This document shows positions 2,638-34,258 of a DNA stretch of 64,000 nt, piece by piece. The stretch lies in assembly GCA_039182865.1 (NCBI GenBank), contig JBCDBX010000001.1:2239-66238 (forward strand). Reading direction: 5' to 3'. Position 1 is the stretch's first letter, and the number at the start of each line of letters is the position of its first letter. This stretch comes from Pseudomonadota bacterium. Its GTDB lineage: Bacteria > Pseudomonadota > Gammaproteobacteria > UBA4575. The position numbers and the translations under genes are program-made. The notes beneath the pieces were generated by a model, which saw only the letters and a program-made list of their open reading frames with translations, searched no databases and was not told where the DNA came from.

Positions 2638-3396
2638 ATGCGAAAAACTATTTTTGCGCTGCTAGCATTGGCAGCATTATTAATAAGCACTGCCCAAGCG
2701 GCTACAACCCGGATTTATGATGTTACTTCTGCAGATGGTTCAGGCTCATCACATAGCCTTTGGTTTGCACCTCCAGGTGTACCAGGCTTAGGCCAAAACT
2801 TTCGATTTGATCCACCTTATTTACCTACAGGTGTTGGCACATTAGTTCTTGACGACATGGCAGAAACAGGCAAGCTAACCGGCAATGCTTTACATCCAAG
2901 CGAAGTAGGCACTGGTTGGATCATTGAATTCAACTATGACAAAAACTTCCCAGCCCCCTATGATCCGCCACAGTTTAAATCTGAAAATGGATCTGCTCCA
3001 GGCGCAGATATTGAATATTGGAACTTCTCAGGTGGCACATTGACTGGTGTCGGTTTGCTTGATGGCATCACTTTGGGTGTTTCATTATTGCCTGCGGATG
3101 GAAAATTTAACTTTCAAATTAGTTCAAGCATAGATGGTGTTAAACCAAGTGCTAACAATAAAAATACTAATTTTGGTGGCGCACATTGGGGTAAAGTCAC
3201 AAATGTAGAGATTAATCAGGACATTTGTTTTCAAAGCGCCTACTGCGAGGAAAATTTTGATGGTTTAAAAGAACTTCGCGGTCGACAAATTGATATCAAT
3301 GTGGATCTCACACCTGTCCCTGTTCCTGCTCCTCTTGCATTAATGCTTTCTGGCATTGCAGGTATGCTTGGATTTAGCCGTCGTAATAAGAGCTAA
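2638..3396 (+). CDS. Secreted protein with a C-terminal PEP-CTERM/VPLPA-CTERM-type sorting signal
   Basis: Signal peptide ending AQA-A. The C-terminus reads TPVPVPAP-LALMLSGIAGMLGF-SRRNKS, which is a Pro-rich motif, then a TM helix, then a basic tail. This is the architecture of exosortase-dependent sorting signals. Good RBS (AAAGGAAAGAG). Confidence 0.55.
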   Translation: MRKTIFALLALAALLISTAQAATTRIYDVTSADGSGSSHSLWFAPPGVPGLGQNFRFDPPYLPTGVGTLVLDDMAETGKLTGNALHPSEVGTGWIIEFNYDKNFPAPYDPPQFKSENGSAPGADIEYWNFSGGTLTGVGLLDGITLGVSLLPADGKFNFQISSSIDGVKPSANNKNTNFGGAHWGKVTNVEINQDICFQSAYCEENFDGLKELRGRQIDINVDLTPVPVPAPLALMLSGIAGMLGFSRRNKS

Positions 3397-3474: not shown

Positions 3475-4134
3475 TTAATCTGAATTGATTTTCTGAGGTT
3501 TCCAACCGAGCTTCCAGTGGTTTTTCTTAACAATGACTGGTGGTCGACCATTATCGTAAAACCAGGAATCCACAACAAATTCTTCGTCTGATTCTTTTTC
3601 TTTAATTAGCACTGCAGTATGTGGATAACCAGCGGAGAAGCCTACTCGAGAAATGTAACCTTCTATAGTGTGCCATTTAAGCATATTTTCGCTCTCAAGT
3701 ATGCGCAAATAAGTATATGTATTTGATGATTCATCTATGCAGTCCATCTGATTGCTCTTAGATCTTTCTAACCCAAAGAGACTTGCATATGAACCCCCAA
3801 CATCAAACTGTGTATCCGTCATTCTACCCACTATAATTTCAAATTGGGCAACATATTCTGCAATTTGAATTCTTTCATGAGCAGCACTTAAATTGTTTAA
3901 CTCCCAATCAGAGGTCAACTTCTTCCATTCATTTCCAGTTAACGAGACTGATTGAATTTGCCGACAACCATGCTGATAACAAATCTTAAACTCCTCATAA
4001 CTGACTTCATTGGAAGATAAATCTAATGAGCTGTTTTGATAGCGCACAAAATTGGGCGACTTTGAAAAGACCAAAAAAGGAAAGCATAAAAGTAAAATAC
4101 TTAAAACTATGTATCGAATATTTAGTTTAAACAC
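3475..4134 (-). CDS. Periplasmic BTLCP-family (LapG-like, transglutaminase-like) cysteine protease
   Basis: Signal peptide. Cys-His-Asp triad in the characteristic BTLCP contexts and spacing: MDCIDES (versus GDCEDYA), PHTAVL (versus HAVL), VVDSW. The C-H gap is about 40 aa and the H-D gap is 16 aa. Confidence 0.55.
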   Translation of the reverse strand: MFKLNIRYIVLSILLLCFPFLVFSKSPNFVRYQNSSLDLSSNEVSYEEFKICYQHGCRQIQSVSLTGNEWKKLTSDWELNNLSAAHERIQIAEYVAQFEIIVGRMTDTQFDVGGSYASLFGLERSKSNQMDCIDESSNTYTYLRILESENMLKWHTIEGYISRVGFSAGYPHTAVLIKEKESDEEFVVDSWFYDNGRPPVIVKKNHWKLGWKPQKINSD

Positions 4135-6771: not shown

Positions 6772-7758
6772 ATGATAGCGCGCATGCAAAGCTTGGAACA
6801 TACCCCTGACTGGAAAAAAATATTCGCAAGCGAATATGTTGGCATGACTAATCTCGATTATTCATGTCTGGATATTAGTCAAGATGAACTTAAAGATATA
6901 AACACCCTCTTTCCAGTTCAACTCACGCAATCACTTTTAAGAAATCATTCCGCTAACAGCAAAGTACTGCGACAGTATTTACCAAGCAGACAAGAATTGA
7001 TTAACCCTGTTGGCTACAATATTGACCCAGTTGGTGATCAACAGGCAACTCAACAAGATGGCATCATTAAAAAGTACAAAAATCGAGTCTTGTTGATAAC
7101 AACACATACCTGTCCAGTTCATTGCAGATACTGTTTTCGAAAAGATTACCCTTATGTAAAAGATAACCCAAACTCACATCACTTTAAAAATGCTATATCT
7201 TTTATTGAAAAAGATTCCAGCATAAATGAGGTAATACTAAGTGGAGGAGACCCGCTCAGCTTACAAGATGAGATGCTCTCACAATTATTCAAGACCCTTG
7301 AAAATATTCCTCACGTAAAGACTATTCGGATACATACAAAATTTCCCTCTATCATTCCTGAAAGACTTACCAATAAATTTTTAACTATGCTAGAAAAATG
7401 TAAGATAAATACAATCTGTGTATTTCATATCAATCATCCAGAAGAAATTACTAATAAGTTTTTTATCGTAGCTAAAAATATTCAAGCAACTGGAACAATC
7501 ATGCTGAATCAGTCTGTATTATTAAAAGACGTTAACGACGATCACAAAATTTTAATTGAGCTGTCACATAAATTATTTTCTGCAGGGACACTCCCCTATT
7601 ACCTACACATGCTTGACCCAGCGCGTGGCACGCATCATTTTCACGTAGAGAAGCGACAAGCAGAAGCAATTCTAGATTGTATGAAAAAAGAACTTCCTGG
7701 CTATTTAGTGCCCAAACTTGCTCAAGAAATAGCCGGAGAAATGAGCAAAATCTATTGA
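6772..7758 (+). CDS. epmB: EF-P beta-lysylation protein, lysine 2,3-aminomutase-like radical SAM enzyme
   Basis: CPVHCRYCFR radical-SAM CxxxCxxC motif. Divergent from efp, as in E. coli. Confidence 0.9.
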   Translation: MIARMQSLEHTPDWKKIFASEYVGMTNLDYSCLDISQDELKDINTLFPVQLTQSLLRNHSANSKVLRQYLPSRQELINPVGYNIDPVGDQQATQQDGIIKKYKNRVLLITTHTCPVHCRYCFRKDYPYVKDNPNSHHFKNAISFIEKDSSINEVILSGGDPLSLQDEMLSQLFKTLENIPHVKTIRIHTKFPSIIPERLTNKFLTMLEKCKINTICVFHINHPEEITNKFFIVAKNIQATGTIMLNQSVLLKDVNDDHKILIELSHKLFSAGTLPYYLHMLDPARGTHHFHVEKRQAEAILDCMKKELPGYLVPKLAQEIAGEMSKIY

Positions 7759-7922
7759 ATCTAACTTACTATTTCTTAGATGTTTATCCAAAACTCTTAC
7801 TATCTCATCACCCAGAATTTGTTGCTTAAACCGTCATTTTTTTGTTTATCTCGATAGGCGGACAGCCTCATCCGATAGGTAGCTAAGGTTCCTGCCGCTT
7901 TTTCAAGGGTCACACTATAAAA

Positions 7923-7944
7923 TTGATGAACAGGAACACATCAA
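7923..7944 (+). promoter_or_regulatory. Inverted repeat TTGATG-N10-CATCAA 17 nt upstream of the 7961 start codon (candidate operator)
   Basis: The 6-bp arms are perfect reverse complements. It overlaps a TATAAAAT -10-like element (7916-7923), and an AAGGGAA RBS follows it. Confidence 0.3.
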
Positions 7945-7960
7945 AATTTAAGGGAATATC

Positions 7961-9706
7961 ATGCTTCTGGATATGCAAATCTATATACCAAGTCAGGACC
8001 CGTTGGCTCATGAAGATTTCGCATTGACACCTCGAAAAGTTAAAAAGTGGATTAAGTCAGCATCACTTGCTGATCCGCAAAAAGCAAGCACGGAATTAAT
8101 CGAACTTATCTCCAATAGCAACCGTGTTACATTCCCAAGCAAGCAGCGCTACGCCTCATTAGAAATATTGGCGCCAATTTGTAAATCAATTTTAGCCCAA
8201 CATAGTAAATCTTTATCTCATCAGACGTTTCCTCTATCAGGAAATGCCGTAAAAAGTCATAATTTTCAGCAATCAATTTTAGCTGAAATAGCAATCTCTT
8301 ATAAGATTATTATTGCTGAAGCTGTGCATGGTGATAACAGTCTCAATCAGAAGAAATTACTATTATCACTTTTCAAGGCTATTTGTTGTTTAAAACAAGA
8401 ATATGTTTCGAGCTTACTAACATATCAAAAAATCTCAGAAAACATCTGGCCTGATATCTGTCAGCTCTATCGTGTTGCAGAATTTTATGATTTTCAAAAT
8501 CGTGTTGTTCAAGATAGAGAGCTTTCAGAAAAAACAACAATCGCAAATATTTTTAAGTATCTATGCTCACTGACCATGATTTCATTCAATAAACTAAGGC
8601 AAGGTGAGGCAAGTGCTATTATAAAATTTTTAAACAAAAACTGTCAGCTAATCGAAATTCAAAGTAATCTTGAGACATTTACTGAAGATTATATTTATCT
8701 TGCTAATTTAGCGACTGGCAAACCGCCTTCGTACTACATACCTAGAGAAGTTCCCATATCTTCAGAGAACCGTTTTGTGCTTTATTCTTTATTCATAAAT
8801 AAACTTTCTGAATTAAAGCAAAAGTATGTGCAGTCTCATTCATACTATCTACACTCTGATGATGAGATTGATCCAGATCTTGCCAATCGTTTAATCGAAA
8901 TGATAGGCAAGCCTACACAAAGAAGCAAAAAGCGCCTAAAAAGCAATCAAAAAGTTAAAGCTATTATTTGCCTAGATAAGATTTTAGAGACTTTAAATCC
9001 TGAACAAGATGAGCCTGATCCCTTAGCTGAAGATTCTTATATTCTACATAGCATGGCCTTGTTACCGATTGAAGAAAAATCAAAAATTATTTTTGATGAA
9101 TCAAAGACAGGAGACAGTCAATGTCTAGATATCTCTCAAAATCTTTCAGATATTTGGGAACATGACTCAGAATTGAATTCTAAGAATGAACAACCTGAAG
9201 AAATAAAAAATAATGATGCCAATGAAACGGGAACCTGGAAAATCGATAACTATAGCTCAGGTGGGTTTTGCCTCACTTATGACACAGATGGAAGTTGCAA
9301 AACACGCGTTGGTGAAATCATCGCTATTCGTGACACAAACAACGCAGATCAAACCATTCAATGGTTAACCGGAACAATTCGGTGGATGCAATGTGATCCA
9401 CAGCATTCAAACCGAATTGGCGTTGAACTATTTGGTGCTGAATGCGCATTTATTACAATACATACTAATAATAATGATTCGACTAAATATCATGGTCTTT
9501 TACTTAAGAAAATTGAAGATAATGAAAAGAAATTTAGCTTGTTAGTCCCTACTCGAGTAAGTTTTGATTCAAATGACATAGTTATACGTGGCAAGAAAAG
9601 TGAACGTAGTGCGATTCTAGGACAAACACTTGAAAAGACTAGCTCTTTTACACATTTTGAAATACTTGAAATAGCGACACAGAATCAAGTTTTAAATAAT
9701 TTATAA
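7961..9706 (+). CDS. 581-aa protein: an approximately 420-aa N-terminal region of unknown function plus a C-terminal non-canonical PilZ domain
   Basis: Residues about 425-500 read KIDNYSSGGFCL ... RVGEIIAIRD ... GTIRWMQ ... RIGVELFG. This matches the PilZ (D/N)xSxxG motif and the beta-barrel core. No RxxxR sits at the canonical -20 to -30 position. The nearest is RSKKR, about 105 aa upstream. Confidence 0.55.
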   Translation: MLLDMQIYIPSQDPLAHEDFALTPRKVKKWIKSASLADPQKASTELIELISNSNRVTFPSKQRYASLEILAPICKSILAQHSKSLSHQTFPLSGNAVKSHNFQQSILAEIAISYKIIIAEAVHGDNSLNQKKLLLSLFKAICCLKQEYVSSLLTYQKISENIWPDICQLYRVAEFYDFQNRVVQDRELSEKTTIANIFKYLCSLTMISFNKLRQGEASAIIKFLNKNCQLIEIQSNLETFTEDYIYLANLATGKPPSYYIPREVPISSENRFVLYSLFINKLSELKQKYVQSHSYYLHSDDEIDPDLANRLIEMIGKPTQRSKKRLKSNQKVKAIICLDKILETLNPEQDEPDPLAEDSYILHSMALLPIEEKSKIIFDESKTGDSQCLDISQNLSDIWEHDSELNSKNEQPEEIKNNDANETGTWKIDNYSSGGFCLTYDTDGSCKTRVGEIIAIRDTNNADQTIQWLTGTIRWMQCDPQHSNRIGVELFGAECAFITIHTNNNDSTKYHGLLLKKIEDNEKKFSLLVPTRVSFDSNDIVIRGKKSERSAILGQTLEKTSSFTHFEILEIATQNQVLNNL

Positions 9707-9718
9707 GCAGTATGCAGT

Positions 9719-11794
9719 ATGGATGAAGTATTAAAATTATTAGTACTTAGCAATAATGCTAACAATGCAGATGATATTATCAGAACTGCCAAGTCTTCAG
9801 GGTTTGCAGTTCGTGATACTATTGTGTCATCCAAAGATGAGTTTTCTGACATATGCTCTTTTGTAGAACAATTCCATATTGCCATTATTTCTGATGACTT
9901 TGACCAGCTTAGCATTAATGAAGTTAGCTCTAGCCTCAAAAGTGATGAACATTATGTATCACTCATTGCACTCAGCAATAATATTGCAGAGACTCAAGCT
10001 GAATCGATGTCAAATGGAGCTGATGCCGTTATCCCTGCAGATGATAAATCACAGCTGACACATGCAATTACACAAATTGCAAAAACTGAATTATATATTC
10101 AGAATCTGCAATCCAAATCAGATGCATATGAGGATTTAAATCAACGCTACCAAAAAATTCTTAATATTTCGCAAGACGCTATTTGTTATATCCATGAAGG
10201 CTTGCACACCTATGTTAATAAATCCTACCTGAAATTATTTGGCATTGAGGATATGGAAGATGCAAGCGCTCTTTCGATTCTTGAACTTGTCAGCCCTGAG
10301 GATCATGATAACTTAAAAAATATTTTAAAAGACGTCCATAAAAATCAAAACTCAGGCGACACTAAGCTAAATTTTAAAACTCAAAATAAAACACAGATTC
10401 TTCAAGCAACTTATGACCCAGTACTTGTTGAAGGAGAAATTTGTGCACAATTTGTTATTCATTGGGAAATAGAAAGCTCTGAAGAGTTGCAGGAACAGAT
10501 TAGTTATATCTCTGAAAGAGATCTTGAGACTGGCTTCTTTCATAGAAAGTCTATCATCGATAAATTACAAGAAGTTTTAAAACCAGACCGCAGTGAATTA
10601 GTCACACACACATTTGTACAAATCGATATAGCAAACCTTGATTACATTCAAGACCAACAAGGCGTTATTGCATTGGACCAGCTTAGCACACATATTGCGG
10701 ATACACTTCAGTCATCTTGTGATGGTGAAGATCTGCTAGCAAAAATCACGGACAAGTCTTATGGCATCCTCACGGATATTACTGACAGTGAGCAGTTAAT
10801 TTTATTTGGAGAGAAATTACGTGAGAGATTTGATGATAATCCTTTAAAAGTTAATGGCATCACCATCGAGCCTAAATTTTATATTGGTGCTGTTCATTTA
10901 GATGAAATGATCGAACAAGCCTCAGATGCGCTTGCTGCCTCTAAGCAGGCTTGTGACCACGCTAGCGAGCATGACCTTAATGAACTCTATTTATATCAAA
11001 GAGACCCTGCAACACTCACAGGAACAATGCTTGATCAAAAATGGGCAAATGAATTACAAGAAGCTATTGATGAGAATCGACTTAAACTTCAATTCCAACC
11101 GATTATTAGTACCAATAACGATAATATTGATCGCTATCAAGTTTATACTCAACTAATTAGTAGAGAAGGCACCAAAATTTCAGTTGCTGGGATTTTGCCC
11201 AGTATTGAACGCTCTGGTGTCTCTTCCATGTTTGATCGATGGGTCGTTGATTTATCATTGATCAAACTTGCCGAGCATACGCAACATAATCCGAATTCAC
11301 AGTTCTTTGTTAAGTTAACCGCAGGTGCGGTATCTGATGCTTCATTTATTCCATGGCTTAGCAAAAAGTGTACTAGTCGAGGCGTTGATCCTGAGAGAGT
11401 GATATTTGATTTGCGTGAAGATGTGGCTATCAATAATTTAAAAGAAACGAGATCATTCTCTACAGAACTCAAGAAACTTGGTTTCCAAATTGCAATTGAT
11501 TCATTCGGCATTGGGCAAGACCCCAGCAAAATACTGACCATGGTTCCTGCGGCTTATTTAAAACTAAGCTTTCAGTTAGTCTCTGGGATTAAAGACAATG
11601 ATGAGGAAAAAATTCAAGCCATCAGAAATATCTGCGAGGCCGCGAGTAATTCCGGTACCAAGATAGTAGCGCAGTTTGTAGAAAACGCAGAAGTCTTATC
11701 ACAATTATGGACAATGAATATTGACTATATAAGCGGTGATTTTTTCTGCAAAGTGGGTGCAAGCTTAGAGTACGACTTTTCAAGCGCTGCCTAG
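9719..11794 (+). CDS. FimX-like degenerate c-di-GMP protein: REC-like / PAS / GGDEF-like / EAL-like
   Basis: 691 aa. REC-like N-terminus with the acidic pair replaced (LLVLSNN). PAS (ICYIHEGLHTYVNKSYLKLFGIE). GGDEF fold starting ERDLETGFFHR, with the A-site GG(D/E)EF position reading TDKSYG. EAL fold (LQFQPIIS...) with EAL replaced by QVY and DDFGTG replaced by DSFGIG. The C-terminal (V)AEGVE and QGY positions read VAQFVE and SGDFF. Confidence 0.75.
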   Translation: MDEVLKLLVLSNNANNADDIIRTAKSSGFAVRDTIVSSKDEFSDICSFVEQFHIAIISDDFDQLSINEVSSSLKSDEHYVSLIALSNNIAETQAESMSNGADAVIPADDKSQLTHAITQIAKTELYIQNLQSKSDAYEDLNQRYQKILNISQDAICYIHEGLHTYVNKSYLKLFGIEDMEDASALSILELVSPEDHDNLKNILKDVHKNQNSGDTKLNFKTQNKTQILQATYDPVLVEGEICAQFVIHWEIESSEELQEQISYISERDLETGFFHRKSIIDKLQEVLKPDRSELVTHTFVQIDIANLDYIQDQQGVIALDQLSTHIADTLQSSCDGEDLLAKITDKSYGILTDITDSEQLILFGEKLRERFDDNPLKVNGITIEPKFYIGAVHLDEMIEQASDALAASKQACDHASEHDLNELYLYQRDPATLTGTMLDQKWANELQEAIDENRLKLQFQPIISTNNDNIDRYQVYTQLISREGTKISVAGILPSIERSGVSSMFDRWVVDLSLIKLAEHTQHNPNSQFFVKLTAGAVSDASFIPWLSKKCTSRGVDPERVIFDLREDVAINNLKETRSFSTELKKLGFQIAIDSFGIGQDPSKILTMVPAAYLKLSFQLVSGIKDNDEEKIQAIRNICEAASNSGTKIVAQFVENAEVLSQLWTMNIDYISGDFFCKVGASLEYDFSSAA

Positions 11795-12675
11795 TTTTTT
11801 TCAAGAGCGGCAATTCTTTGCTCCAGTGGTGGATGCGACATCAATAAGCTTTTTAAGCCACTTGCGATTCCACCTGAAATTCCAAATGCTGCCATCTCTC
11901 CTGGCAAATCTTGAGGCTCGTGCACAGACTGTAAACGTCGCAACGCACTGATCATCTTCTGCTTACCTGCCAAACTAGCACCTCCAGCATCCGCACGAAA
12001 CTCACGTTTACGAGAGAACCAGCTCGCAATGATCGCGGCAACAATTCCCAAAATTAACTCTGCAACAATACTACCAATGAAATAACCAGGCCCAATCCCT
12101 CTCTCAACCTTAAATACGACGCGATCAACCAACATGCCAATAATGCGTGAGAAGAAAATGACGAATGTATTTAGCACACCTTGTAGTAACCCCATCGTTA
12201 CCATATCTCCGTTCGCTACATGGCTAACTTCGTGACCAAGTACTGCCTCAACTTCATCTTGATTCATGGATTGCATGAGTCCCGTACTGACTGCAACGAG
12301 TGCATCATTCTTTTTCATCCCAGTAGCAAATGCATTAGGTTGCGGTGAATCAAACACTCCAACTTCTGGCATACCGATACCTGCCTGTTCTGCTTGGGTT
12401 TTAACCGTATCTAATAACCAACGTTCAGTATTATTTTTCGGCGTTTCAATTATTTGAACACCCATGCTTTTCTTAGCCATCCATTTAGATGCTGCTAAAG
12501 AAATAAAGGACCCACCAAATCCGAAGATCAAAGCCATAATTAAGAGACCGTTCATTTGCCCCATCATGCCTTGTTCAGCAAGCCATTGATCCAAACCTAG
12601 TACGCGCGCGGAAACGCTAAGCACCGCAAGCACACTAAAGTTTGCTAATAAAAATAAGCCTATTCTTGAAAACAT
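11791..12675 (-). CDS. htpX: Zn-dependent heat-shock protease HtpX
   Basis: HEVSHVANGD HExxH motif, four TM segments, and HtpX-like throughout. Confidence 0.9.
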   Translation of the reverse strand: MFSRIGLFLLANFSVLAVLSVSARVLGLDQWLAEQGMMGQMNGLLIMALIFGFGGSFISLAASKWMAKKSMGVQIIETPKNNTERWLLDTVKTQAEQAGIGMPEVGVFDSPQPNAFATGMKKNDALVAVSTGLMQSMNQDEVEAVLGHEVSHVANGDMVTMGLLQGVLNTFVIFFSRIIGMLVDRVVFKVERGIGPGYFIGSIVAELILGIVAAIIASWFSRKREFRADAGGASLAGKQKMISALRRLQSVHEPQDLPGEMAAFGISGGIASGLKSLLMSHPPLEQRIAALEKN

Positions 12676-30649: not shown

Positions 30650-31270
30650 ATGGGCGACATCACCAATATTATTTACTTTATAGTCGCTTCTTTCCTTTTC
30701 ACAATTGCCCCTGGTCCTGATATGATTTTTCTAGTCACCCAAACCTTTACCCATGGCCCCAGGGCAGGCGTTCCTACCGCAGTTGGTTTAACTTGTGGAA
30801 ACTTAATACACACATTGGCTGCAGTATTGGGTGTATCACTCATCTTTCAAACATCTGAGCTTGCTTTTGACATTGTCAAAGTTCTAGGTGCTTGTTATTT
30901 ACTGTATCTGGCTTATGAAATTATTTTTAAACAGAATACATCGTCGAGTAAAAGCAAAAATTTAACTAAACACTCTTTAGTCGTGCGTGGCATGCTAATG
31001 AATGTATTAAATCCCAAGGTTATGCTTTTCTATATCGCATTCCTGCCGCAGTTTGTTTCACCTAACTCTCAACAAATAGAGTTAGAAATGCTTTTTTTTG
31101 GTGTACTATTTTCAATAATTGTACTGATAACATTTGGAAGTATTGGTTTATTTGCGGGATATTTTCGAAATATCACACCAAATAAATTACTTACAACACC
31201 TTCTTTCAAATGGATCTTAGCAATAATCTATATGTTATTGGCTACTCGTCTAGTGTTTGAATCCATCTGA
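30650..31270 (+). CDS. LysE/RhtB-family amino-acid exporter
   Basis: 206 aa with six TM segments. N-terminal PGPD motif typical of the LysE family. Confidence 0.7.
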   Translation: MGDITNIIYFIVASFLFTIAPGPDMIFLVTQTFTHGPRAGVPTAVGLTCGNLIHTLAAVLGVSLIFQTSELAFDIVKVLGACYLLYLAYEIIFKQNTSSSKSKNLTKHSLVVRGMLMNVLNPKVMLFYIAFLPQFVSPNSQQIELEMLFFGVLFSIIVLITFGSIGLFAGYFRNITPNKLLTTPSFKWILAIIYMLLATRLVFESI

Positions 31271-31452: not shown

Positions 31453-33159
31453 ATGAAACTGCTACTTCCATTGTTACTAGTATCACTCTTATCGTCTGCT
31501 GCATTTGCCGACAAGAATAAGCACTCTACTAAAGAATTATTAGAAGAGGCAGAGCAGACTATGCAAAGCCCAGAAGTTTCACCTGTGCGAAGAATCGAAC
31601 CTAAATTCAACAAGAATAAAAATAAACAGCACAATATTATTTATCGGAATATTGATGGTAGTTTCAACAATATTATCGATGATCAAATGAATGTCACAGA
31701 TACACAATTGATACGAGTCGCTGATGAAACTTACGGTGATGGTATCAGTGCTATGGGAGGAACTGATCGACCAAACCCAAGAGCAATCAGTAATGCGGCG
31801 TTATCTCAGACAGAATTATCATTCGCAAGTACAGGGGCAAGTGATTTTTTATGGCAATGGGGTCAATTTTTGGATCATGATATTGATTTGACCGAGGGCG
31901 TACACCCTGCCGAAGAAGTCCCTATCTCCATTCCTGCTGGTGATATACATTTCGACCCAAATAATATGGGCAATGTCGTCTTAGCATTCAACCGTTCAAT
32001 ATATGATACAAATACGGGAACAGATTCCAGTAATCCGCGTCAGCAAAAAAATGAAATTACGGGTTGGATTGATGCTTCGAATGTATATGGCTCGGATGAT
32101 GAACGCGCTCAAGCTTTGCGCAGATTGGATGGTTCAGGAAAGCTAAAAACTAGCGATGGTCGCCTTCTACCATTTAATACTGATGGCTTAATTAATGCAG
32201 GCGGTCCTAGTGCTGAATTTTTCTTGGCAGGCGACCCTCGTGCGAATGAACAAATAGGCTTAACCGTCATGCATACTCTGTTCGTGCGAGAACATAACCG
32301 TCTTGCAAGAATAATCGCTAAAAAGAATCCATTTTACAGCGGCGAAAGAATTTATCAGACAGCTCGTCGAATCGTAGCGGCTCAAATGCAAGTCATCACT
32401 TACAATGAATTTTTACCGATACTACTTGGCAAAAATGCAATTCCTAAATATGAAGGCTATGATCCTAATATAGACGCACGTATTGCAAACGAATTTTCAA
32501 CAGCGGCGTACCGACTCGGCCATAGTTTGCTATCACCACAAATTCTACGTATATATAAAAAACGTAAAAATTTCGACAATAGTGAAATCTCTTTACGCGA
32601 AGCTTTCTTTGCACCATTTCTTCTGACCAAAAAGAATAACATTGGCTCTATATTGCGCGGCTTAGCTTCTCAACAGTGTCAAGAACTTGATGTGTTCGTT
32701 ATTGATGACGTACGTAATTTCTTGTTTGGTCAGCCCGGAAGCGGAGGCTTTGATCTTGCTTCATTAAACATTCAACGTGGGCGAGATCATGGTCTTGGAA
32801 GCTACAATCAAACACGTATTGCACTTGGTTTACCTGCTGCTACTTCATTTGAAGATATTTCTTCTGACCCTGACATCCAAGCTAGACTTTCCAATGCTTA
32901 CGACAACGTAGACTTAATCGACCTCTGGGTGGGGGGATTAGCTGAAGATAAAGTTGATGGCGCCATGGTCGGACCCGTATTTTATGAGATTCTTAGAGAT
33001 CAATTCATACGCTTACGTGACGGAGATCGATTTTGGTACGAAAACGATATGAGTAAGAAAGAAATAAGGAACATTAAGAAAACAACTTTAGCAAAAATAA
33101 TTCGGCGCAATACAGGAGTTGGCAGAGAATTACAAAACAATGTTTTCTTGGTTAAGTAA
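31453..33159 (+). CDS. Secreted animal-type heme peroxidase (peroxidase-cyclooxygenase superfamily)
   Basis: Signal peptide. Distal His/Asp motif WGQFLDHDID. RANEQ heme-linking Glu motif. Proximal His in TLFVREHNRLA. Distal Arg in FSTAAYRLGHS. Confidence 0.8.
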   Translation: MKLLLPLLLVSLLSSAAFADKNKHSTKELLEEAEQTMQSPEVSPVRRIEPKFNKNKNKQHNIIYRNIDGSFNNIIDDQMNVTDTQLIRVADETYGDGISAMGGTDRPNPRAISNAALSQTELSFASTGASDFLWQWGQFLDHDIDLTEGVHPAEEVPISIPAGDIHFDPNNMGNVVLAFNRSIYDTNTGTDSSNPRQQKNEITGWIDASNVYGSDDERAQALRRLDGSGKLKTSDGRLLPFNTDGLINAGGPSAEFFLAGDPRANEQIGLTVMHTLFVREHNRLARIIAKKNPFYSGERIYQTARRIVAAQMQVITYNEFLPILLGKNAIPKYEGYDPNIDARIANEFSTAAYRLGHSLLSPQILRIYKKRKNFDNSEISLREAFFAPFLLTKKNNIGSILRGLASQQCQELDVFVIDDVRNFLFGQPGSGGFDLASLNIQRGRDHGLGSYNQTRIALGLPAATSFEDISSDPDIQARLSNAYDNVDLIDLWVGGLAEDKVDGAMVGPVFYEILRDQFIRLRDGDRFWYENDMSKKEIRNIKKTTLAKIIRRNTGVGRELQNNVFLVK

Positions 33160-33167
33160 TAGTATAT

Positions 33168-33584
33168 TTAGTGAGATATAAAAATATACTGAGAATCACG
33201 AAAACTCTTGAATTCCAAATAGTTCTGGCTGGGGTCTTGAATAAAAAAGGTTCTTTGTTCGCCAACTTGATCCTTAAAGCGGGTATAGGGTTCGATATAA
33301 AATTCAATATGATATGAACGCACTCGCTTAACAAGTTGGTGCCAGTCTTCCCAAGCTAGTATTGCGCCGAAATGTCTTGTGGGGACTGCTCTATTGTCCA
33401 CCTGATTGTAATTTTTACTCTCATCTTCTGCTAGATGGGCCGTGATTTGATGACCAAAGAAATTAAAATCAATCCAGCGCTCATCCTCTCTTCCAACATC
33501 ACAACCTAAAATTTCCACATAAAACCTTCGTGTTGACTTGATACTTTGGACGGGAAATGCCAAATGAAAGGGTGGAATACTCAT
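33168..33584 (-). CDS. VOC-family (glyoxalase / bleomycin resistance / dioxygenase) protein
   Basis: 138 aa. HLAFPVQSIKSTRRFYVEILGC N-terminal VOC motif. Confidence 0.65.
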   Translation of the reverse strand: MSIPPFHLAFPVQSIKSTRRFYVEILGCDVGREDERWIDFNFFGHQITAHLAEDESKNYNQVDNRAVPTRHFGAILAWEDWHQLVKRVRSYHIEFYIEPYTRFKDQVGEQRTFFIQDPSQNYLEFKSFRDSQYIFISH

Positions 33585-34258
33585 TATTTTTGATACGTGA
33601 CGTTATTTCTCAAATAAACTGGAAGTATATTTGAGGCGCCAAGCATTTCTCCAGACATTACTTTCTTTCGACCTAACAAGGCGGTGACTTTAGCCCTAGG
33701 TAATGCTTCAGCATTAATACATTCTTGATCTAAACGAGTTTTTTTTTGCAATATTGCAAAATAAGTTCCCCAGCCTGATCCCAGTCCAGACACAATGGAT
33801 CCCGCATTTACCTCAATCATCTCAGGCGCTTGTACTTTTTCTTCCACTACAAGCTCAACATCGAAATCAGATTTTTTTCGATAGACTGCCCAGTAAACTT
33901 CATTCATACGCGCATCAATCGCAGGTAAAACTAGTTCATCGCTAACAGTATCTACTTGGCATGCAAGATTGGCTAAAGTCGATATCGAAACTGCTGGCAA
34001 GTCATGCGCAAATGCGATTCCTTGAGCAACACCTGCAGCAATGCGTACTCCGGTAAATGCCCCAGGCCCACAACCAAACGCTATTGCATCCAATTGAGTT
34101 AGACTTACTTCTGACTCAGCCAGCACCTTTTCACACATGGGTAGTAGTAATTCATTATGTTGGCGTGGCGCTACTTGATACTGCTCAATGACCTCACCAT
34201 CAATTAATACCGCAGCAGAACACGCCTCGGTCGCAGCCTCAATTGCAAGTAATTTCAT
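33584..34258 (-). CDS. tsaB: tRNA t6A37 threonylcarbamoyladenosine biosynthesis protein TsaB (YeaZ)
   Basis: YeaZ-like N-terminus (MKLLAIEAATEACSAAV). Adjacent to yoaA, as in E. coli. Confidence 0.85.
   Translation of the reverse strand: MKLLAIEAATEACSAAVLIDGEVIEQYQVAPRQHNELLLPMCEKVLAESEVSLTQLDAIAFGCGPGAFTGVRIAAGVAQGIAFAHDLPAVSISTLANLACQVDTVSDELVLPAIDARMNEVYWAVYRKKSDFDVELVVEEKVQAPEMIEVNAGSIVSGLGSGWGTYFAILQKKTRLDQECINAEALPRAKVTALLGRKKVMSGEMLGASNILPVYLRNNVTYQK

Follow-up and report, generated by a model that had tools for sequence, protein, structure and literature searches.

A fimW-fimX-like gene pair in an uncultured marine gammaproteobacterium, probably orthologous to PA4958 and PA4959 of Pseudomonas aeruginosa

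The DNA described here is a 64-kb stretch (hereafter, the window) of contig JBCDBX010000001.1 from an uncultured marine gammaproteobacterium, and it carries two adjacent genes on its forward strand whose products we call A and B. Gene A is fimW-like, lies at 7961-9706 (+) and encodes 581 amino acids, and gene B is fimX-like, lies at 9719-11794 (+) and encodes 691 amino acids; the open reading frame (ORF) listing and the sequence itself place a spacer of 12 nt between them (9707-9718, +). An earlier reading of this DNA, made from the sequence only, had reported both ORFs, their lengths and the distance between them, and its coordinates were exact. A promoter and terminator scan of positions 7600-12000 found no terminator-like site in the gap between A and B, and the promoter-like sites in that region occurred at chance level only and were uninformative. 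The two genes are probably co-transcribed. The P. aeruginosa genes PA4958 and PA4959 encode FimW and FimX, respectively (PMC10335732), and we argue below that A and B are very probably the orthologues of this pair.

Protein A is identical to MEM8843420.1 at NCBI, which has a precomputed Pfam hit to PF27104 (FimW_N). A protein search with A returned 49 relatives, almost every one of them from an uncultured gammaproteobacterium, and the precomputed families among them were PF27104 and PF27125 (FimW_C). In BLASTP, residues 3-567 of A align to the 607-amino-acid ORF that lies directly upstream of fimX in Pseudomonas paraeruginosa (L001 3336-5159), with 21% identity and E=4e-27. Furthermore, a profile built from 28 members of the A family matches P. 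paraeruginosa FimW in hhalign with a probability of 100% (E=1.2e-41) over 555 columns. The family is a large one: of the clusters formed at 50% identity, 4,750 fall within E<=1e-3, and for E<=1e-30 the number is 1,939. Judged by sequence, therefore, A belongs to the FimW family, and its homology to FimW (PA4958) spans the whole protein. The sequence-only reading had recognised no motif in the N-terminal ~420 residues and had taken A for an enlarged form of the small PilZ adaptor known from other FimX systems; the region in question is Pfam FimW_N, and the likeness to an expanded adaptor gives way to full-length homology with FimW. Our own Pfam and NCBIfam scans returned no match for A, the Pfam copy that was scanned containing no FimW models, and sequence searches of the PDB found no match for A or for the A-family profile, that is, no solved structure of the family detectable by sequence.

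The AlphaFold model of A has a mean predicted local distance difference test score (pLDDT) of 75 and a predicted template modelling score of 0.72, and in it a helical domain, modelled with confidence, extends to about residue 345; an acidic, disordered segment (residues 350-423) and an all-beta C-terminal domain (residues 425-572) follow. The first of these is the FimW N-terminal helical domain (residues 1-345; 7961-8995, +), which includes the RxxxR motif R321-S-K-K-R325 (8921-8935, +), one part of a split PilZ signature. The linker between RxxxR and the barrel (residues 350-423; 9008-9229, +) is predicted to be disordered (pLDDT 25-35) and has a high content of E, D and S; its sequence is variable, and it is absent from the short members of the family (about 505-530 amino acids). 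The C-terminal PilZ-type beta-barrel (residues 424-572; 9230-9676, +) contains N430-Y-S-S-G-G435 and R474-W475 and is modelled as a six-stranded barrel with a D/NxSxxG strand, as a PilZ domain requires. In an alignment of 28 family members R321, R325, G435 of the N-Y-S-S-G-G motif and R474-W475 are all invariant. The PilZ fold that had been proposed for the end of A was thus recovered, in the form of the barrel and the NxSxxG motif.

The spacing of the two PilZ motifs is unusual. There is no RxxxR in A at the canonical distance of 20-30 residues from N430-x-S-x-x-G435, and to this extent the sequence-only reading, which had denied the protein a properly spaced RxxxR, was right; what it had missed is the invariant R321-R325, which lies 105 residues upstream of N430-G435. 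The spacing is the same in P. paraeruginosa FimW, where the motifs are R324-T-F-Q-R328 and N435-G440. Similarly, among the 147 best family representatives D/NxSxxG...(R/K)W is present in 132 and is accompanied by an upstream RxxxR in 131, the median distance from RxxxR to NxSxxG being ~110 residues in the long forms. Because the RxxxR is invariant and is found at the distance typical of FimW, A looks like a binder of cyclic di-GMP (c-di-GMP) and not like a motif-less adaptor.

At one related locus (L088, 6102-7804, on a closed contig of 2.76 Mb), fimW is broken exactly within the linker, giving two ORFs with an overlap of 4 nt, and the FimX orthologue encoded downstream of them shares 36% identity with B. 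The first half has 389 amino acids (FimW_N, with KRLEKR) and the second has 178 (the PilZ barrel, with NASNGG). This could be a natural division of the c-di-GMP site over two polypeptides, or it could be a frameshift error in what appears to be a long-read assembly.

Protein B aligns from residue 3 to residue 690 with P. paraeruginosa FimX (L001 5224-7299), at 25% identity and E=1e-77 in BLASTP, and the latter protein also has 691 amino acids, in agreement with the FimX length given in the sequence-only reading. Among PDB sequences B is matched best by 4j40, a GGDEF-EAL fragment from P. aeruginosa FimX (E=7e-44), which ranks ahead of RbdA (PA0861; PMC10335732), and Xanthomonas FimX entries are also among the top matches. 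At NCBI the protein is annotated as 'EAL domain-containing protein'. Pfam detects PAS, GGDEF (weakly, at 37 bits) and EAL (158 bits) domains in B and gives no Response_reg match. The PAS domain spans residues 142-240 (10142-10438, +; Pfam PAS at 143-240 with E=5e-9, PAS_8 with E=5e-5), and it is followed by a degenerate GGDEF domain at residues 267-417 (10517-10969, +; E=3e-9), in which T344-D-K-S-Y348 replaces GGDEF, and by a degenerate EAL domain at residues 444-678 (11048-11752, +; E=3e-46), whose altered motifs are given below. The degenerate receiver (REC-like) domain at residues 1-120 (9719-10078, +) was recognised from structure and from profile comparison. The N-terminal 135 residues of B are modelled by AlphaFold with a pLDDT of 90 in the (beta-alpha)5 topology of receivers, every match of this model in a Foldseek search of the PDB was a receiver domain, and a clade profile of the same residues matches the N-terminus of FimX in hhalign (97.4%, E=1e-11). 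The FimX-like order REC-PAS-GGDEF-EAL that had been proposed for B is therefore upheld, by Pfam for the last three domains and by the model, Foldseek and hhalign for the first.

The domains of B that would be expected to carry out phosphotransfer or catalysis are altered at their key sites. In the receiver, S11-N12-N13 stands after beta1 at the site of the acidic pair and I105 occupies the position of the conserved Lys, while D59, after beta3, is E, N, T or I in relatives from the clade. T344-D-K-S-Y348 aligns to GDSIF of FimX. In the EAL domain, EVLxR has become Q474-V-Y-T-Q478, DDFG has become D594-S-F-G597 and QGY has become S672-G-D674. All of the substitutions on which the claim of catalytic degeneracy had been based (NN, TDKSYG, QVY and DSFG) are present, and these degenerate readings are conserved in ~45 members of the clade. 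FimX itself is a degenerate REC-PAS-GGDEF-EAL receptor of c-di-GMP that binds PilB (PMC5595344; structures 4j40 and 3hv8), and its GGDEF and EAL domains have neither cyclase nor phosphodiesterase activity (PMC8389850). Protein B is thus a FimX-family protein, and its motifs predict that it is enzymatically inactive.

The C-terminus of B (11771-11794) reads (L/M)(E/D/N)YDF(S/T), a motif kept from the clade to the distant relative at locus L082 and to Pseudomonas FimX. Within it Y685, D686 and F687 are invariant, and Xanthomonas FimX has a similar sequence (NYEF). This conservation suggests that the C-terminus of FimX may have a role in partner binding or in structure.

Whether the EAL domain of B could still bind c-di-GMP is best considered residue by residue. 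The published c-di-GMP contacts of FimX are L477, R479, D507, E654 and Y673, and E475, the Glu of the EAL motif, coordinates Mg in the pGpG complex (PMC3527489). The equivalents in B are Y, Q, D, E and D, with Q at the position of the EAL Glu; D506, E655 and the Q-P loop are retained. Throughout the ~45 clade members, EVLxR is represented by Q-V-(Y/F)-(T/S)-Q and QGY by SGDFF, and in a sister clade (P0099-P0103) the FimX Arg is replaced by Ala. Xanthomonas FimX, which binds c-di-GMP (PMC8389850), also has QAF at the EAL site and GDF at the GYY site, but it keeps the Arg (QAFLR). As QAF and GDF are compatible with binding in Xanthomonas, only the Arg-to-Gln change is specific to the clade. The EAL substitutions of the clade are strictly conserved and would therefore reflect selection and not decay.

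Conservation of the gene pair was assessed at 80 Pseudomonadaceae loci and six loci from outside Pseudomonas. In 79 of the 80 Pseudomonadaceae loci fimW lies directly upstream of fimX, and the last contig is too short for a decision; the same arrangement is found in the window and at L081, L082, L084, L085, L088 and L089. A conserved pairing, as the sequence-only reading had supposed, is therefore borne out. In the window, the genes upstream of A encode a dienelactone hydrolase, EpmA, Efp and EpmB, and those downstream of B encode HtpX, ParC, ParE and a UvrD-like helicase. At L081, L084, L085 and L089, where the FimW proteins are 36-52% identical to A, the order is that of the window with psd added: psd, epmA, efp, epmB, fimW, fimX, htpX, parC, parE. 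At L082 (FimW 24% identical), psd is followed at some distance by fimW and fimX, then by a further GGDEF-EAL gene and by parC and parE. In P. paraeruginosa the order is rhodanese, psd, fimW, fimX, serB and, further on, parC, and there too no pil genes are adjacent. The pairing is ancestral, and so is part of its neighbourhood, which supports orthology of the two gene pairs. That the pair sits between epmB and htpX, with no pil gene or ATPase nearby, was confirmed by the scan of window ORFs, but the conclusion that this makes for a different genomic context was mistaken, since the Pseudomonas locus (psd-fimW-fimX-serB...parC) also has no pil genes and the relatives share psd...fimW-fimX-htpX-parC-parE. 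A fimW-fimX locus normally has no pil genes beside it, and their absence does not set this one apart.

The additional gene at L082 (10355-12154, -) encodes a second GGDEF-EAL protein of 599 amino acids; it is convergent to fimX and lies between fimX and parC, in the place taken by htpX in the window. The pairing of the two genes is not universal across the wider family. Short FimW-like genes (503-515 amino acids, with FimW_N and FimW_C and without the long linker) occur at two loci, L083 and L086, where they have no FimX-like neighbour. There (L083 8001-9512; L086 6001-7548) the context is conserved and consists of an ahpC-like gene, the fimW-like gene, a thioredoxin gene, rho and rpmE, and one of the short FimW-like proteins is labelled 'cyclic-di-GMP-binding protein' by JGI.

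We consider it very probable that this uncultured marine gammaproteobacterium has, in A and B, genes orthologous to fimW (PA4958) and fimX (PA4959), and that they are likely to tune type IV pili (T4P) through c-di-GMP. The full-length homology of both proteins, their domain folds, their motifs and the conserved pairing and neighbourhood form the basis of this reading. In P. aeruginosa, rising c-di-GMP brings FimW to the poles of the cell, and there it promotes T4P assembly (PMC10212136), and FimW is described as a c-di-GMP effector that promotes T4P assembly in the accounts of Laventie et al. (2019) given by PMC11656802 and PMC10212136. By analogy, the c-di-GMP ligand of A would be clamped jointly by the RxxxR segment and the NxSxxG of the PilZ barrel, as in other PilZ receptors, B would act as an enzymatically dead FimX, and the two proteins, jointly or in parallel, would promote T4P extension in response to c-di-GMP, as in Pseudomonas. 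In Pseudomonas and Xanthomonas, FimX takes up c-di-GMP at its EAL domain and activates PilB, the ATPase of pilus extension, whether directly or via the small PilZ protein. The sequence-only reading had left the output of the pair open; in P. aeruginosa this output is T4P assembly, and it may well be the same here. Because the 64-kb window shows no T4P gene, a pilus output in the source organism is something that we infer, as we do c-di-GMP binding and any contact between A and B.

Several points weigh against this reading. The precomputed hits of A itself do not include FimW_C (PF27125), although that family is listed, sometimes weakly, for its relatives P0002, P0004, P0034 and P0043, and the C-terminal region of A does align to FimW in hhalign. 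The Pfam PilZ model (PF07238) gave no match at E<=10 for A, for its C-terminus, for a construct with the linker deleted or for P. paraeruginosa FimW, and the relative P0045 reaches 16 bits with Pfam PilZ, under the cut-off of 22.5. Formally, then, A fails to belong to the PilZ profile, yet its fold and motifs agree with a PilZ domain; such profiles would miss FimW because its signature is split by a disordered linker of ~105 residues in most members of the family. Furthermore, no pilus gene or secretion ATPase was found among the ORFs of the 64-kb window scanned with Pfam, and c-di-GMP binding by B is uncertain because the Arg of EVLxR is lost and the equivalents of L477 and Y673 differ. As for FimW itself, c-di-GMP binding, polar localisation and promotion of T4P are known for P. 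aeruginosa only, and the phenotypes of fimW mutants have been reported differently across studies. Finally, an interaction between FimW and FimX is without experimental evidence according to a 2024 review (PMC11656802). 

The small PilZ adaptor of T4P systems (the PA2960 or XAC1133 type) has ~117 amino acids and is not known to carry RxxxR or D/NxSxxG. On one alternative account, A would be an enlarged, c-di-GMP-blind version of such an adaptor, bridging the FimX-like EAL domain of B to an unknown output other than the pilus. It draws on the PilZ barrel at the end of A, encoded 12 nt upstream of a FimX-like gene, and on the lack of pil genes in the window, and a direct contact between FimW and FimX would fit the conserved pairing. 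We nevertheless regard this account as very unlikely. Protein A has 581 residues, two domains and both PilZ motifs, and its homology extends over its full length to FimW and not to a protein of ~117 amino acids; it retains the invariant RxxxR and the NxSxxG, whereas the PilZ adaptor of Pseudomonas and Xanthomonas does not bind c-di-GMP (PMC8389850); and the Pseudomonas locus is equally devoid of pil genes, yet its output is T4P. An active diguanylate cyclase or phosphodiesterase in B, with A as an unrelated neighbour, would accord with the detection of GGDEF and EAL by Pfam and with the name given to the protein at NCBI. Such activity is extremely improbable, given that GGDEF reads TDKSY, the EAL Glu is Gln and DDFG reads DSFG, that the closest solved relative (4j40) comes from a protein with neither activity (PMC8389850), and that A and B have stayed adjacent across distant lineages; on motif grounds we rejected it.

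A different question is raised by accounts that accept the orthology of both genes but hold that the FimX of this clade no longer binds c-di-GMP, so that FimW would be the only sensor and FimX a signal-blind scaffold or one that responds through its PAS domain. The strict replacement of EVLxR and QGY in all ~45 clade members speaks for this, as do the differences at three of the five published FimX contacts and the canonical binding motifs kept by FimW. However, Xanthomonas FimX binds c-di-GMP with QAF and GDF, which leaves only the Arg-to-Gln change as clade-specific; the clade keeps the Q-P loop, D506 and E655; and the Gln may still hydrogen-bond the ligand, with an invariant R/K nearby at position 472. 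On balance we find a signal-blind FimX doubtful, if conceivable. A more specific proposal goes a step beyond it: the FimX orthologue of this marine clade may no longer sense c-di-GMP, leaving FimW as the sole sensor, with the tight operon reflecting a direct FimW-FimX partnership. We offer it tentatively and think it unlikely. In either case, the replacement of a c-di-GMP-contacting Arg throughout the FimX orthologues of a clade is a natural experiment on the contribution of this residue.

If A and B are, as we favour, fimW and fimX, there is little novelty in the module as such: the pair has already been described from Pseudomonas, these genes are its orthologues, no new receptor module is involved, and the Pfam families concerned have already been named after FimW. 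The fimW-fimX pair and its psd/parC neighbourhood are kept in lineages well beyond Pseudomonas, where protein identity falls to 21-25%, and conservation this wide is comparative support for the functional link between FimW and FimX that was said to lack direct evidence (PMC11656802).

Other features of the window can be recorded briefly. The genes fimX (+) and htpX (-) are convergent, and their stop-codon ends overlap by 4 nt (11791-11794), with no terminator-like hairpin between them. Two ORFs, at 2638-3396 (+; 252 amino acids) and 3475-4134 (-; 219 amino acids), have no Pfam match at E<=1e-5. Further away, an ORF of 568 amino acids (31453-33159, +) covers the whole Pfam profile An_peroxidase (animal haem peroxidase) with E=3.4e-162, and its neighbours are a LysE-type exporter gene (30650-31270) and a TsaB-like gene (33584-34258).

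In comparison with known systems, A stands apart from the canonical PilZ receptors (PA0012, YcgR, Alg44, BcsA and VCA0042) in the placing of its motifs, as RxxxR is usually 20-30 residues from the second motif in those proteins and is ~105 residues from it, across a disordered insert, in A. It also differs from them in having no Pfam PilZ match and in the 345-residue helical domain in front of its barrel. The FimX-PilZ-PilB system of Xanthomonas citri (PMC8389850; 4f48, 7lkq) resembles the present pair in its FimX, which shares with B a Gln at the EAL Glu, the GDF motif and a degenerate receptor architecture, but Xanthomonas FimX keeps the Arg (QAFLR) where B has Gln. The adaptors differ more deeply, that of X. 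citri being a small PilZ protein with one domain and no c-di-GMP binding (PMC8389850) and A a 581-residue FimW-family protein with intact motifs.

The closest parallels are with P. aeruginosa. Protein B is only 25% identical to FimX (PA4959), and EVLLR is QVYTQ in B (with loss of the Glu and of the c-di-GMP-contacting Arg), QGYY is SGDF and GDSIF is TDKSY; the two proteins nevertheless share a length of 691 residues, four domains aligned from end to end, degenerate REC, GGDEF and EAL domains, and the C-terminal YDFSS motif. Similarly, A is only 21% identical to FimW (PA4958), is shorter (581 against 607 residues), lacks the C-terminal tail ending DFDSLWKSL, and is separated from fimX by 12 nt where the gap in Pseudomonas is ~65 nt. 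What A and FimW have in common is homology over their full length, the FimW_N family, a position directly upstream of fimX, and the same layout of helical N-terminal domain, RxxxR, linker of ~105 residues, NxSxxG and PilZ barrel.

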